Assembly: GCA_026416715.1 (NCBI GenBank)
Contig: JAOAEQ010000005.1
Coordinates: forward strand, 1,190 to 65,189
DNA: 64,000 nt
Direction of reading: 5' to 3'
DNA from: a bacterium
GTDB lineage: Bacteria; UBP4; UBA4092; JAOAEQ01
A model generated the notes under the pieces. That model was not told where the DNA came from. It worked only from the letters and a program-made list of their open reading frames with translations, and searched no databases. This document shows positions 3,252-64,000 of this stretch, in pieces. Positions within the stretch are counted from its first letter, which is position 1. Every line of letters starts with the position of its first letter. A program made the position numbers and the translations under genes.

Positions 3252-3288
3252 ATAACCCGCTCTACCTACCTTACATTTGTTTAACCTG

Positions 3289-3333
3289 TGGAGTTGAGTG
3301 GGAATTGCTTTGAGCAATTCCCACTCAACTCCA
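3289..3333 (+). terminator. Perfect 19-bp-stem hairpin downstream of the DUF2723-like gene
   Basis: GGAGTTGAGTGGGAATTGC (3290-3308), loop TTTGA, GCAATTCCCACTCAACTCC (3314-3332); exact reverse complements; only a weak T-rich tail follows. Confidence 0.4.
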
Positions 3334-3371
3334 GTAGTTCAGCTTTCTTACTTACTTCGATAATCAAATTT

Positions 3372-3400
3372 TAGACAAAAGAGGGATTTTTTGATATAAT
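3372..3400 (+). promoter_or_regulatory. Putative sigma70-type promoter for rpmE with extended -10
   Basis: TAGACA (3372-3377), 17-nt spacer, TGaTATAAT (3392-3400), about 48 nt upstream of the rpmE ATG; AAAGGAG ribosome-binding site before the start codon. Confidence 0.4.
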
Positions 3401-3447
3401 AGATAGTTCAATACATAAAGTTTTCTTAATAAAGGAGTAGAGAGCTG

Positions 3448-3693
3448 ATGAAAGAGAAAATCCATCCGCAGTATTATCAAGTAACCATAAAATGCGCTTG
3501 CGGTGCCGTATATGAAACCGGTAGTACCAGAAAAGACTACCATGTCGAAATCTGTTCCGCCTGTCATCCCTTTTTTACCGGGAAACAGAAATTAGTCGAT
3601 TCTGCTGGTCGAGTTGACCGATTCCAGAGAAGAGCGGAAAAAACTGCTGCGGTTACCGCTACAGCGAGCGCAGCGAAAAAAACCAGTAGTTAG
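3448..3693 (+). CDS. rpmE: 50S ribosomal protein L31
   Basis: 81 aa; [10 protein letters not shown]..., Cys-pair zinc ribbon (CACG...[13 protein letters not shown]) and GRVDRF motif match L31. Confidence 0.9.
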
Positions 3694-3709
3694 CTTCGTT
3701 TCCCTTATA

Positions 3710-3778
3710 ATGCAGGATAGTAGTTTACTATTTATACCCTTGGGTATAACCGCAATATAGACTACCCTGCATTTTTTA
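3710..3778 (+). terminator. Putative intrinsic terminator of rpmE (compound hairpin followed by T-run)
   Basis: ATGCAGG (3710-3716) pairs with CCTGCAT (3766-3772), enclosing the inner palindrome TATACCC-TT-GGGTATA; followed by TTTTTT (3772-3777). Confidence 0.45.
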
Positions 3779-3805
3779 TTTACCCATAATTCAAGCACGA
3801 GCAAT

Positions 3806-9441: not shown

Positions 9442-9470
9442 GGTAACCTCTGTCATTTTGGTATAATAAA

Positions 9471-9523
9471 GCAGAAGATTGAAAAACGCTCCGAGGAAAA
9501 ATCTTTTTCCTCATATCTTCTGC
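9471..9523 (-). promoter_or_regulatory. Nested palindromes in the leader upstream of the pilD-aroE-aroC transcription unit
   Basis: Outer arms GCAGAAGAT (9471-9479) and ATCTTCTGC (9515-9523); inner perfect palindrome GAGGAAAAA-TC-TTTTTCCTC (9493-9512); on the minus strand the structure is followed by TTTATTATACC just before the start codon. Confidence 0.3.
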
Positions 9524-9878
9524 TAGGTTATAACTATTTTATAATAATTAGTATAAAGGTTCTAGCAAAATTACGCAAATGTTTTTATATAATTAACAAA
9601 ATCATTACTATCAAGAACTAATTGTATCAGGTTTTAGGGTATATAATTTACCTCATTTGCCTTATTTGATTGTGAGGTCGTGCAAAGTGGTACTAGAATT
9701 GTACCTTATGGTTATATGAGAATCTTGCCATTCTGAATCCAGCTTATTCCTATATAGCAAATTTATGGCGTGATTTTTGCACAATGTTTGGATAGATAGC
9801 ACGATTACTGTGATTTAAATCTTCGTATCAAAATTAAATCACTGTAATCAAACAGTATAAGAAAGGAGGGTAAACTCT

Positions 9879-17754: not shown

Positions 17755-19140
17755 TTATCTCGCTCCTTTACCGGTGAGCACTACCCGGATGGTTGAAAAT
17801 ATAATTTTTAAATCTAGCATTAATGAGATATTATAAACGTAAGCTAAATCGTATCGCAACTTGTTTTCTACCGAAGTATCATACCGGCCATGAATCTGGG
17901 CTAATCCCGTTAGTCCCGGACGCACTTTCAAACGCCGGGAATAAAAAGGTTCAAATTGATAAAATTTCTTGACAAATTCAGGCCGTTCTGGTCGCGGTCC
18001 AACCAAACTCATATCCCCTTTTAGAATATTCAATAATTGTGGGAATTCATCAATTCGTGTCTTTCGGAGAATAGCACCGAATCGAGTTATTCGGGGATCA
18101 TTTAAAGTCGCTAATACCGGTCCGGTTAAATCTTCTGCATTCTTGACCATGGTACGAAATTTATATAGCATAAATTGTTTCCCATCTTTACCGACACGTT
18201 GCTGCCGATAGAATACCGGACCAGATGAAGTTAATTTTATTAAAAGCGCTATGATACAAAACGGGATGAGCAAGACCACTAATGCGCCTAATGAAACTAC
18301 AATGTCCAGAAATCGTTTTATTACTGGATATACACCAGAAAATGCATGCGATTTGATTTCAATCAGTGGAATACCAGCAGTTTCCTGTAATGTTATCCGA
18401 CCGACGGTAACTTCATAGAGCGATGGTAGGACTTTCACTTTAACCCGAGCTCCGATATTCTCACATAAAGAAATTAAGCGTAATAAATCATTTGGCGCCA
18501 CTCCAGTTACCGCAATAATTAGTTCGGTAATTTTCAATTGGGAAACTAATTCATGTAATTTCGATATTTTCCCCAACATAGGCATGGATGGTTCTCCATT
18601 CGACGGAGTGATTTCTGCATCAATGATTCCTAATACTTGATGTCCATATTTAGCGTAATCTTTCATTTCGTCCATAATCTCCTGTCCTAACCGACCAGAA
18701 CTGATAATTGCTACTCGTGAAATAAAACTCCCTCGTGCCCGTTCGATTCGATAATATAAAATTCGCCAACTAGATAATAATACTATCGTCCATAACCAAT
18801 TGTATAGCAATAATCCCCGTGAAATATTAGCTGTCGGGAAAAAATACGTTCGACTAACTAACATAATGAGAAATGAAAATAACCAGCTTATTGTAACCGC
18901 CCAAAAGGTATTATAAATTATGTCGAATGGATATCGATCCTGGTCAAGTTTATATAATTGAAATAGAGCGAGTGTAATTAAATGAATTACAGTGATTAAA
19001 GGAGATAAATAGAAAAAAATATTTACGTGAACAGGTTGCGGTACGCCATGAAATTTAGTAAAAAAACCGAGACAGATTGCTGTATGAATTAAAATACAAT
19101 CTGCAAGGATTGCTGAACTAATGATAAGTTTTTGTTTCAT
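17755..19140 (-). CDS. Polyprenyl glycosylphosphotransferase (bacterial sugar transferase, WbaP/WcaJ-like)
   Basis: C-terminal catalytic domain motifs FYRQQRVGKDGKQFMLYKFRTM...DEFPQLLNILKGDMSLVGPRPERP; N-terminal TM helices. Confidence 0.85.
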   Translation of the reverse strand: MKQKLIISSAILADCILIHTAICLGFFTKFHGVPQPVHVNIFFYLSPLITVIHLITLALFQLYKLDQDRYPFDIIYNTFWAVTISWLFSFLIMLVSRTYFFPTANISRGLLLYNWLWTIVLLSSWRILYYRIERARGSFISRVAIISSGRLGQEIMDEMKDYAKYGHQVLGIIDAEITPSNGEPSMPMLGKISKLHELVSQLKITELIIAVTGVAPNDLLRLISLCENIGARVKVKVLPSLYEVTVGRITLQETAGIPLIEIKSHAFSGVYPVIKRFLDIVVSLGALVVLLIPFCIIALLIKLTSSGPVFYRQQRVGKDGKQFMLYKFRTMVKNAEDLTGPVLATLNDPRITRFGAILRKTRIDEFPQLLNILKGDMSLVGPRPERPEFVKKFYQFEPFYSRRLKVRPGLTGLAQIHGRYDTSVENKLRYDLAYVYNISLMLDLKIIFSTIRVVLTGKGAR

Positions 19141-34639: not shown

Positions 34640-34668
34640 TTAAGTTTAATATATTCTGAACCTAAATT

Positions 34669-35364
34669 TTATTTTTTCCGCGCACAAACTGCAATGGTGA
34701 CCATCCATCGTGCTAATCTCTTATCTAACTTCTTATCCAACCATCTTAATATGCCATTCAACCAAGGAATAACAGATGGGAATACATGAATGCCTTTGTA
34801 TTCAAGTATTTCTAAATTAAGATTCTCTAGAAAAATCCGAAATGCTTTATAATAATGGAGCCAATTTTCGTATCCTTTATGCCTTCTTACTCCAATTACA
34901 TTGGCTAAAACAACCGCAAAATACCAGAATGATTTATTGGGAACAGTGATACAAATAATCCCATTTTTTTAAGACACGAACCAGTTCCCGAGTAGCTTGT
35001 AGCGGGTTGGAAGTATGTTCGATAACATCAGAAGAAATAACATATCCAAATGCATTTTCCTTAAAAGGCATCGCGAGAATTGAACCAACCACACCGTGAG
35101 CCATTGAATTTTTTTCTTTTGTTATCTTAACGAGTCGTTCACCAATATCAATTGCAATTACTTTTCCGGATCTATCTATTATCGCTTTCGTAAACCACCC
35201 GGTACCGCAACCGGCATCGAGAATAAGTTTATTCTCTAATATTTGCGTACCTAAAAATCAGTAAAAATAACCTCAATTCTTCTCTGGGTATCATATCGGT
35301 TGCTTAGTGAATCAAATTTAATAGCTATTTCATTATAAAATTTCTCTTTATCATTACTTTTCAC
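34669..35364 (-). pseudogene. Class I SAM-dependent methyltransferase interrupted by two frameshifts in homopolymer runs
   Basis: No ORF of 60 aa or more in the track; manual minus-strand translation gives three consecutive frames with methyltransferase motifs (LILDAGCGTGWF, VIAIDI, RVLKK then GIICITVPN); frame breaks coincide with T7 (34964-34970) and A5 (35252-35256) on the plus strand; no in-frame ATG. Confidence 0.5.
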
Positions 35365-51565: not shown

Positions 51566-51605
51566 CTCAACTTCTATCCAGTAAGAGTCATAATTATATT
51601 CGGGA

Positions 51606-51642
51606 GAATAACAAGAGCGGCTTTAACCCGCTCTTGTTATTC
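51606..51642 (+). terminator. Hairpin downstream of lptD (putative terminator)
   Basis: AATAACAAGAGCGG (51607-51620), loop CTTTAAC, CCGCTCTTGTTATT (51628-51641); perfect 14-bp stem but no clear U-tract. Confidence 0.4.
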
Positions 51643-52001
51643 CCAAAAACAATTTGCTTCATCGAGTGATTCAGGCTAAATAATATGACTGATGGATTAT
51701 TAATACTACTAGTTTGAGTATTTTAATTTTTTGGAGATTATTTCTCTTCGCGATTATCGAGAAACTATGGGATTAAACTGACTACGAATCGAAGTTCGCC
51801 ATTTAAAATCAAAACATGTTATCTGGTATATGCTCTGTATTTCTTGCGCGACTTAGTGAACGGTAGCTCTACTTTAGATTGAGGGCAAGTTGACTAACCA
51901 GCTAAATAATGGTAAATTGTATAGTCAAATTTGTTTGATTGGATGATGAATGTATGCGACCCTATCGGTAATTCGAAACTGTCTGCTGCAAGGCAAATAT
52001 T

Positions 52002-61977: not shown

Positions 61978-63381
61978 TTGCCGAAAAACGAATTATCCAT
62001 GAGTAAATCGAGTACTAGAAAACCATCCGCGCGATTGATAGCGTATCAGGTGTTACTTCGTGTTGAGCAAGATAAAGCATATGCGGGATTAGCGCTGGAT
62101 AGTGCCTTAGCTAAATCAACATTATCTAACCGAGATAAGCGACTGGTTACCGAGCTGGTGTATGGAACGATTCGACATCAGGGAACAATTGATTGGCTGA
62201 TTGGCCAGTATGCGAACAAATCGGATAAATGGATTTCTCTAAAGTTAAAACTAATCCTGCGATTGGGCGCTTATCAACTGTTATATTTAAATAAAATCCC
62301 GGAATTCGCAGCTGTCCACGAAACGGTTAAACTCGCAAAACAATCGGGATTAACGAAATTTGCTGGAGTGGTTAATGCGGTATTACGTCGTCTTGCGGAA
62401 CATCGTGACCGGATAGAATATCCGGATAAAACGGTAGATATGGTTCGATATCTATCCGTGAAGTATTCGCATCCGGAATGGATTATTCGAATTTTTTTAT
62501 CGCAGTTCGGTGTTTCAGAAACAGAACATTTATTAGCGGTGAATAATCAACCTGCGCCGATAACTCTTCGGGTGAACCAATTAAAATGCACTGTTAACCA
62601 GGTAGAACAACTATTGACTCAGGCGAACTTGGATGTTGTGAAACATCAATACGTATCGAACGCATTACAAATTAGCCGATTACCGAGGTCAATTCAGGAT
62701 TTACCTGGATATCAAGAAGGGTATTTTACGGTACAGGATCCCGCTTCAATATTAGTTGCCGATTTAGTGCATCCAAAACCAGGGCAGACGATAGTCGATT
62801 TATGTGCGGCACCAGGTGGAAAAGCAACTCGACTTGCAGAACTAATGCAAAATCAGGGAAAATTATTTGCTATTGATTTACATCCGAAAAAAGCGAAATT
62901 AATCGAACAGACCGCTGTTCGGCTTGGACTAACGAATATCAAAGTTATTGTTGCTGATGCTACACGATTAAACGAAATAATCTCAGAACCAGTTGATGCC
63001 GTTTTAGTTGATGCACCATGTTCCGGGTTGGGAGTCCTGCGTCGCAAAGTTGATAGCCGATGGAGAAAACAACCGACGACAATTCCTGAACTTGTTCGTT
63101 TACAGGAACGGTTGCTAGAATCTGCATATCAGATTTTAAAACCTGGCGGTGTTCTCGTATATTCAACCTGTACGTTAACTAAGGAAGAAAACGAACTCCA
63201 GGTTAGTCGATTCCTGCAATTACATCCGGATATGCACCTTGGTTTAGCAAAAGGCTATCTTCCTTCTTCAGCAGTGGAATTGATTACTAAAGAAGGATAT
63301 TATTTAGCTTTACCGCATAAACATGGAACCGACGGCATCTTTGCAGCACGTATGATTAAAAAAACTTCATCAGGGCTTTAA
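61978..63381 (+). CDS. rsmB: 16S rRNA (cytosine967-C5)-methyltransferase RsmB/Sun
   Basis: N-terminal NusB-like domain and C-terminal methyltransferase with DLCAAPGGK motif and catalytic Cys region (STCTLTKEENE). Confidence 0.9.
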   Translation: MPKNELSMSKSSTRKPSARLIAYQVLLRVEQDKAYAGLALDSALAKSTLSNRDKRLVTELVYGTIRHQGTIDWLIGQYANKSDKWISLKLKLILRLGAYQLLYLNKIPEFAAVHETVKLAKQSGLTKFAGVVNAVLRRLAEHRDRIEYPDKTVDMVRYLSVKYSHPEWIIRIFLSQFGVSETEHLLAVNNQPAPITLRVNQLKCTVNQVEQLLTQANLDVVKHQYVSNALQISRLPRSIQDLPGYQEGYFTVQDPASILVADLVHPKPGQTIVDLCAAPGGKATRLAELMQNQGKLFAIDLHPKKAKLIEQTAVRLGLTNIKVIVADATRLNEIISEPVDAVLVDAPCSGLGVLRRKVDSRWRKQPTTIPELVRLQERLLESAYQILKPGGVLVYSTCTLTKEENELQVSRFLQLHPDMHLGLAKGYLPSSAVELITKEGYYLALPHKHGTDGIFAARMIKKTSSGL

Positions 63382-63836
63382 CTTATGGTTCATAACCCTA
63401 TACTTTTGACTGATCTCCGATATGCATCGAGGTAAACTTTAGCTCAGGGTTAATAACCTTTAGAGCTAAAAGATTATTGGTAGGCTAAAGCTAAGTCCAA
63501 GTTGGTCGTCCCGTATATAAGAGAGGGCGAATACCCCGTAGTAATTGCTCAGGCGAAGATTCAGTTTATCCTGGCGGGATTAGCGGTACGTGGTTATCCA
63601 TAACAACCCAGTTATGAATAATTGGGCTAATATCAATCATCCGCTTTCAGCGGATTTACAAGAAGCAGGTTTGCAAGAGGAATCTTTGACGGCGATTTAG
63701 CGCACGATGAACAACCTTATAAGGTTGACTGTTTATTTCGGCTTAAACCTATTGAATCCTCGGCTGAAGGTGGGTTGAAGGGTTTTCAGGTTAACGGCTC
63801 ATCAACCTCGACTCAAGGCAGGTAGAAAGCAAAATT

Positions 63837-64000
63837 ATGAAAATGAAACCGAAAATCGTTCCATCAATTTTATCTGCTGATTTCGGCAATCTTAATACTG
63901 CCGTTAAATCCGTCCAACGGGCAGGATGTGATTGGGTACATCTGGATATTATGGACGGTCATTTCGTTCCCAATATATCTATGGGGATTCCGGTAGTCGC
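63837..64000 (+). CDS. rpe: Ribulose-phosphate 3-epimerase (5' partial, runs off the window)
   Basis: [54 protein letters not shown] matches the Rpe N-terminus. Confidence 0.85.

Follow-up and report, generated by a model that had tools for sequence, protein, structure and literature searches.

The rsmB-rpe spacer of a UBP4 bacterium carries one intact Acido-Lenti-1 repeat unit and is probably a relic of mobile repeat DNA

RESULTS

A long spacer with only short open reading frames separates rsmB from rpe

The DNA analyzed here, referred to as the window, is a 64,000-nt stretch of one contig from a bacterium of the UBP4 lineage. Toward its right end, rsmB occupies 61978-63381 on the plus strand, with its stop at 63381, and is followed by rpe, which most likely starts at 63843, based on identity with the rpe start of relatives (ATGAAACCGAAAATCGTTCC); an alternative ATG is present at 63837. 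Thus, the rsmB-rpe spacer (63382-63842) is 455-461 nt long, depending on which start is used for rpe.

An initial annotation of this spacer had drawn attention to a lack of ORFs longer than about 29 codons, to a GC content above that of the surroundings, and to several local hairpins. We found that no ORF exceeds 36 aa, but the longest start-codon ORFs are 33 aa (63502-63603, plus strand) and 36 aa (63590-63700, plus strand) rather than 29, and a 64-codon stop-free stretch at 63631-63822 has no usable start. The GC content of the spacer is about 42.3-42.6%, compared to a window mean of 37.6% (SD 3.4 for 455-nt windows, 95th percentile 43.1%), and all of its sub-blocks fall between 35 and 47%. 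These values are high relative to nearly all other intergenic gaps in the window (mostly 16-37% GC, with three exceptions, one of them the tRNA gap) and relative to the orthologous spacers described below, but not relative to the adjacent coding DNA of rsmB (39-44% GC). Other long gaps in the window are found at 51566-52001 (436 bp, 35% GC, with no ORF of 45 aa or more and only a chance-level Rfam match), 9457-9878, 34640-35353, and 3252-3805 (40% GC, with small ORFs of 48-81 aa).

Folding of the entire region is unremarkable (z = -1.6 for the plus strand and -1.9 for the minus strand). With respect to individual hairpins, ATCCGCT-TTC-AGCGGAT is real and lies at 63639-63655, but a second one from the initial annotation (GGGCGAATACCCC, 63527-63539) has merely 3-4 pairs, and a stronger 14-bp hairpin is present at 63438-63470. 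The two hexamers that had been likened to the P4 strands of RNase P RNA are where they were said to be (AAGTCC at 63493-63498, GGCTTA at 63740-63745), with 247 nt between them.

One part of the spacer, 63561-63658, belongs to the Acido-Lenti-1 family

At gathering scores, a tRNA is the only Rfam match in the entire 64-kb window. An Rfam scan of the spacer, suggested in the initial annotation, returned a single match when filters were permissive (E ≤ 10), to RF01687 at 63607-63656 on the plus strand; its score of 28.2 bits is below the gathering score of 37. The E-value of this match is 2.1e-4 in a 601-nt search and 0.022 in a search of all 64 kb, in which no other sub-threshold match ranks higher. 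RF01687 is the Acido-Lenti-1 RNA motif, published by Weinberg et al. 2010 (PMC2864571), who rated it a likely RNA on the basis of covariation, and Rfam lists it as an sRNA.

Compared to the 89-sequence published RF01687 alignment, the unit in the window has the common CCCAG stem, the TGAA loop, GGGCTAATATCA, and GCTTTCAGC. It also retains the conserved features of the seed, an 8-bp hairpin that starts CCYAG, GGCTA after this hairpin, a 12-nt linker, and a hairpin 2 with a YTYCRG loop region. In the published flanking sequences (PMC2864571 supplementary files), a third hairpin that resembles the 3' hairpin is found about 25-30 nt upstream.

We built a covariance model of the extended unit, R1, from 61 metagenome members, leaving out the window. 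R1 matched 63561-63658 on the plus strand over its full length (1-94) with 46.4 bits and an E-value of 1.6e-9 window-wide, a score that is partly circular because the members from metagenomes were retrieved with a pattern derived from the window's own central hairpin (hp1). Features outside this pattern, which are independent of it, are also present: TTCAG plus a 5-bp hairpin is expected 20-30 nt upstream of a given position with a chance of about 1.7e-4 per position, and TTCAG plus the upstream hairpin hp2' at the family distance occurs once in the window, both strands considered. The unit folds into three hairpins in both DNA (z -2.7) and RNA (z -2.2) predictions, and hp1 contains a G.U pair that corresponds to a C.A mismatch on the opposite strand. 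We assign 63561-63658 to the Acido-Lenti-1 repeat family on these sequence features, which are as follows:

63561..63658, plus strand: intact three-hairpin unit (an "arm") of the Acido-Lenti-1/REP-like family (R1, 46.4 bits)
63560..63564, plus strand: TTCAG motif, 3 nt ahead of the first hairpin; the consensus in the family alignment is TTCAGYC
63568..63580, plus strand: hp2' (ATCCT GGC GGGAT), which aligns with the family hairpin GTCCC-TCC-GGGAC
63581-63606, plus strand: variable spacer of 26 nt after hp2' (family range 22-26 nt)
63607..63626, plus strand: hp1 (CCCAGTTA TGAA TAATTGGG), part of the RF01687 match and of the seed comparison
63627-63638, plus strand: conserved linker CTAATATCAATC, after hp1
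63639..63655, plus strand: hp2 (ATCCGCT TTC AGCGGAT), helix 3 of R1, with a GCTTTCAGC core identical to that of most RF01687 seed members

In the 64-kb window, R1 detected one clear copy of the unit and a doubtful second match on the plus strand at 17844-17930 (15.2 bits, E 0.05), which lies in the 3' part of an ORF on the minus strand (17755-19140). The central hairpin of this second match is imperfect, and the match is probably due to chance.

Members of the family share three covarying hairpins and occur mainly as inverted doublets

A metagenome scan with CCCAGNNNTGAANNNNTGGGCTAAT yielded at least 120 loci. Among the matches listed, hp1 retains at least 7 of its 8 pairs in 124 of 127 pattern matches, and nearly all have a common layout, consisting of TTCAGYC, a 5-bp hairpin, a 22-26-nt spacer, the conserved hairpin, CTAAT with another 5-7 nt, and a further small hairpin. 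Positions 63560-63655 of the window have exactly this layout. R1 found about 195 units in the fetched loci; in the three helices, 95.9% of cells are paired and 430 are compensatory, levels that none of 500 shuffles reached, and slid controls collapsed. Thus, covariation across the family strongly supports the three predicted hairpins, although covariation as such cannot tell RNA hairpins from hairpins in single-stranded DNA. Unlike in typical structured RNAs, G.T and A.C are about equally rare in these stems: non-Watson-Crick cells comprise 47 G.T and 35 A.C among 2608, with no bias toward wobble pairs.

Among the matches listed, 35 of 47 adjacent pairs are arranged head-to-head (-,+). The gaps between adjacent pairs are mostly 4-56 nt, with five of 332-484 nt; by their coordinates, the loci in which a transposase gene lies between the arms (L067, L073, L100, L137, and L176) fall into this long class.

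Other arrangements were also seen. Doublets in L069 (about 1000-1270), L158, L079, and L108 form a subfamily with extra outer inverted ends (approximately CTTTGCACAAAAAG), located about 15-20 nt beyond the distal hairpins and resulting in a palindromic, MITE-like element of about 290 bp. Direct tandem arrays are present in L071 (305-487, with a period of 69 nt) and, based on published coordinates, in Lentisphaera araneosa (periods of 74, about 110, and 192 nt); in such arrays, the distal hairpin of each unit is the proximal hairpin of the next. Five related viral contigs (L054-L058) have ORFs separated by about 180 bp, and in this gap lies a palindrome like the hairpin-1 consensus (CCTAGC.CT.ACG.GCTAGGCTA); we dropped them as members of the family since they match only this consensus and score below the Rfam gathering score.

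Arms of the family flank genes for IS200-type Y1 transposases

Clustering of ORFs over the set of at least 120 loci revealed one recurrent protein, present in nine of the loci listed. This protein of about 150 aa matches Y1_Tnp (PF01797) with 73-95 bits, and all nine copies pass the cut-off of the IS200/IS605 TnpA model NF033573 (63-69 bits, cut-off 55) and fail that of the RAYT model NF047646 (27-31 bits, cut-off 80). In these nine listed loci, arms are found no more than about 100 bp from the ends of the Y1 gene, and on both sides of it in six. In five of the six, the order is a minus-strand arm, the gene, and a plus-strand arm, irrespective of the orientation of the gene itself; in the remaining locus, L165, tnpA lies between direct arms. 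The Y1 genes (PF01797) between inverted units are:

L067, 5075-5720
L073, 8659-9336
L100, 528-1178
L137, 939-1615
L176, 2591-3243

The published model calls some of these arms as well: RF01687 at its gathering score detects flanking units in L067 (on both sides), L100, and L137, and the flanking and doublet arms that it calls score 38-61 bits. We noticed no tnpB beside the arms, and we did not find a transposase link for Acido-Lenti-1 in the literature that mentions the family. Since the units form inverted doublets, flank transposase genes, and have unbiased stem mismatches, the family behaves as a DNA repeat of the REP/REPIN type and not as an sRNA.

The extra sequence at the rsmB-rpe junction is lineage specific

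We sought relatives of RsmB among 5.8 billion clustered proteins and found that the closest are 76%, 67%, and 63% identical, after which identity drops to 47% or less. L052, the 76% relative, has rpe 56 bp downstream from rsmB, with a spacer of 19.6% GC; likewise, L001, the 63% relative, has a spacer of 40 bp with 22.5% GC between rsmB and rpe. The contig of the 67% relative (L053) stops 100 bp beyond rsmB. Neither the repeat unit nor a transposase was found on the contigs of these relatives. Thus, given spacers of 56 and 40 bp in relatives, the rsmB-rpe spacer in the window holds an insertion or replacement of about 400 nt that comparison of these genomes marks as lineage specific, with presence and absence seen solely between species at 63-76% RsmB identity. 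Conservation of the spacer in related genomes, raised in the initial annotation as a way to check for a structured RNA, is therefore not what we observed: the region is missing at the same junction in the two nearest relatives.

The left boundary of the insertion may lie within rsmB. The last six codons of RsmB in the window (63364-63381) encode KTSSGL, and the relatives differ at this point (LEDRS; K). Because this C-terminal tail is unlike that of both relatives, the boundary may be at about 63364, a few codons ahead of the rsmB stop, and the native stop region of rsmB may have been replaced by the insertion.

L053 has a different repeat at the same rsmB junction, a long near-perfect inverted repeat directly after the rsmB stop (2455-2556; GTCATTGCGAAGAGCGAAGCGACGAAGCAATC ... 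GATTGCTTCGCTTCCGCTCGCAATGAC), where the contig ends.

The remainder of the spacer probably consists of decayed arms or accompanying DNA

The intact arm and its family account with confidence for about 100 of the 461 nt. In the remaining sequence, we noted the following features:

63450..63514, minus strand: putative decayed partner arm, weak (R1 7.6 bits, E 0.034 in the 601-nt region)
63438..63470, no strand assigned: strong 14-bp hairpin (TTTAGCTC AGGGTT AAT AACCTT TA GAGCTAAA)
63636..63733, minus strand: putative second decayed arm, very weak (R1 4.9 bits, E 0.14 in the region)
63712..63727, plus strand: palindromic hairpin CAACCTTATAAGGTTG followed by T-rich ACTGTTTATTT, terminator-like in a consensus scan
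63728..63842, no strand assigned: right end of the insertion, in which CGGCTGAA (63761-63768) and TTCAGG (63786-63791) resemble the center of a family doublet

The putative partner arm at 63450-63514 keeps an hp2'-like hairpin (GACCAACTTGGAC) and lacks hp1; it is positioned head-to-head with the intact arm at a distance of 46 nt, compared to head-to-head gaps of 4-56 nt in the family. The hairpin at 63438-63470 could be the distal hairpin of this decayed arm; a 23-mer from it had no exact match in the metagenome collection. The second putative arm at 63636-63733 would be tail-to-tail with the intact arm, sharing hp2 with it and using ACAGTC and the hairpin at 63712-63727 as its hp2'; two tail-to-tail (+,-) pairs with a gap of -6 nt occur in the family, by coordinates in L074 and L109. 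The orientations and positions of both putative arms fit the head-to-head and tail-to-tail layouts of the family, and four alternating arms, only one of them intact, would give approximately the observed length, which we offer as a weak inference. The remaining 360 nt or so probably represent arms that decayed earlier or DNA that arrived with the element.

Searches with the unexplained parts were negative within their scope. Neither 63382-63560 nor 63659-63842 matched any of the 181 fetched loci with nhmmer, there are no second copies or terminal inverted repeats of the spacer in the window, blastn against plasmids and phages revealed no similar DNA, and exact patterns from these parts had no match in viral contigs. 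When the left segment, the unit, and the right segment were compared with each other, we found one marginal match of 17/23 (p ~0.03). A 15-mer common to the left end of L158 was set aside as chance, with about three such matches expected and an orientation relative to the hairpin that does not fit.

Alternative explanations for the spacer

The initial annotation had presented the whole spacer as a candidate structured RNA. It is very improbable that the region of about 455 nt is one structured non-coding RNA gene, be it a diverged RNase P RNA or a large RNA of a new kind. Such a gene would fit a region that is ORF-free, GC-rich for a spacer, and endowed with several hairpins, and the distance of 247 nt between AAGTCC and GGCTTA is close to the spacing of the RNase P P4 strands, but the likeness to bacterial RNase P RNA is confined to the size range and these two hexamers. 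The RNase P models RF00010 and RF00011 and related models had no match in the region at E ≤ 10, nor did tmRNA, SRP, 6S, or any other large RNA in Rfam at the same E-value with permissive filters, and ARAGORN detected no tRNA-like or tmRNA gene in 63000-64000. Moreover, AAGTCC sits in the degenerate hairpin that reads GACCAACTTGGAC on the minus strand, and we rejected it as a P4 strand; the remaining conserved regions of the bacterial type A consensus of RNase P RNA are absent on reading. The weak folding of the region as a whole and its absence from the same junction in relatives also argue against one large RNA, as does the lack of homologs outside the 98-nt unit among the 181 loci, plasmids, phages, and viral contigs and, for a single 23-mer, the metagenome collection. 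What stands is that about 98 nt (63561-63658) are from a family with a candidate-sRNA entry in Rfam; a single structured RNA of 455 nt is not supported, and we exclude RNase P. We also consider it quite unlikely that the sequence on either side of the unit is what remains of a former protein-coding gene between rsmB and rpe, such as the tnpA of the element itself. The coding-like GC content and the 64-codon stop-free stretch would be expected from a decayed gene of this kind, and two TnpA proteins of the family align weakly at 63697-63795 over a length of 38 aa (34-37%; E-values of 0.06-0.11 against a 600-nt database), but these tblastn matches are at chance level given nine queries, a profile of the nine TnpA proteins found nothing with filters off, and a six-frame Pfam scan of the region was empty at E ≤ 10. 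Furthermore, tnpA in the family lies between head-to-head arms, a gap that here measures just 46 nt, and the 64-kb window contains no Y1 transposase gene or remnant.

A more limited possibility, which we regard as unlikely, is that the 98-nt unit acts as RNA, either as a small RNA or as a cis element in the rsmB-rpe transcript (an mRNA-stabilizing hairpin, an attenuator, or an rpe leader). The Rfam listing as an sRNA and the rating as a likely RNA by Weinberg et al. 2010 favor this possibility, as do the G.U pair of hp1, which would be mismatched on the other strand, and the terminator-like hairpin 55 nt downstream from the unit. In the family as a whole, however, G.T is not favored over A.C, and the units occur in both orientations, in inverted doublets, and beside transposase genes; in the window, the spacer has no promoter-like site, and relatives lack the element. 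REP elements in E. coli reportedly influence mRNA stability and translation (Liang et al. 2015, cited in PMC5581495), which speaks for an effect on the transcript; incidental RNA effects would be compatible with a mobile repeat.

DISCUSSION

We think it probable that the rsmB-rpe spacer is a relic of mobile repeat DNA, foreign and non-coding, that carries one intact Acido-Lenti-1 arm and is confined to this lineage. This interpretation is that of mobile DNA rather than an RNA gene because the one recognizable part of the spacer is a repeat that flanks IS200-type genes elsewhere. With somewhat more reserve, we also lean toward the view that Acido-Lenti-1, listed as an sRNA since 2010, is the arm of a REPIN-RAYT-like system that is seemingly undescribed in the literature we searched. 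The arms of this system would be 94-nt three-hairpin modules with a variable spacer of near-constant length, usually placed head-to-head and mobilized by an IS200-like Y1 enzyme, in Acidobacteria, Lentisphaerae, Planctomycetes, Geobacter, and the lineage examined here. As a bolder extension, the variable spacer, given its constant length, might take part in the choice of the target or the cleavage site.

In IS608, transposition proceeds by "peel and paste," in which subterminal hairpins are recognized as single-stranded DNA. By analogy with IS200/IS605 and RAYT enzymes, the Y1 transposase of the family would bind the hairpins in single-stranded DNA and would also move doublets that lack a gene. 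The lone arm between rsmB and rpe would then be a decaying remnant that is no longer mobile. Any RNA effect would be incidental: with three stable hairpins, the rsmB-rpe transcript could be degraded more slowly by 3' exonucleases, or read-through could be attenuated.

The unit in the window resembles the published RF01687 motif in its two hairpins with a 12-nt linker, its CCCAG...CTGGG stem, the GGGCTAAT.TCA linker sequence after hairpin 1, and a hairpin 2 with a GCTTTCAGC core, and the published flanks likewise have a third upstream hairpin, set off by about 25 nt of spacer. It differs in that its stems are AT-rich and its hairpin 2 is formed by 7 pairs where the published one has 5, with a score of 28.2 bits, and its host is not from the Acidobacteria or Lentisphaerae (identity of the host's RsmB to that of named taxa does not exceed 47%). 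The published motif, for its part, leaves out the upstream hairpin, and a transposase link was not described for it.

Compared to known mobile systems, the family is most like REPINs and RAYTs. A REPIN is an inverted doublet of REP sequences with a variable spacer, RAYT genes are flanked by these sequences, and singlets are decaying remnants (PMC3337134, PMC5581495). Likewise, Acido-Lenti-1 units are hairpin repeats that form inverted doublets with a variable spacer, flank a Y1/HUH gene of about 150 aa, and include decayed-looking singlets (compare Bertels & Rainey 2011, PMC3337134, PMC3116915; Bertels et al. 2017, PMC5581495). In contrast to REPs, each arm is a 94-nt module of three hairpins and not one palindrome of 20-30 nt, and the transposases score as IS200/IS605 TnpA and not with the NCBIfam RAYT model; the window, moreover, has a single intact arm and no transposase within 64 kb. 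The family also resembles IS200/IS605 elements and their gene-less derivatives (PATEs), with which it shares the PF01797 Y1 transposase and, in L165, direct arms as in an insertion sequence, but the two arms are inverted relative to each other in five of the six loci where they enclose the gene, which is the RAYT pattern and not that of an insertion sequence.

For this genome, the spacer carries little weight: the two housekeeping genes at its ends are neighbors in relatives, and it would mark a recent insertion between them. The finding is ordinary in itself and eliminates a false lead to a new large RNA. We consider the link between the family and the transposase to be of moderate interest. 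An sRNA family listed in Rfam appears to be a transposase-associated DNA repeat, and RF01687 hits, among them reported ones close to protease genes of Tannerella, call for further evidence before they are taken as regulatory RNA. The literature on REPINs and RAYTs (PMC3337134, PMC5581495) deals mainly with Pseudomonas and Enterobacteria; if our interpretation is true, REPIN-like systems would extend to soil bacteria and uncultivated phyla.
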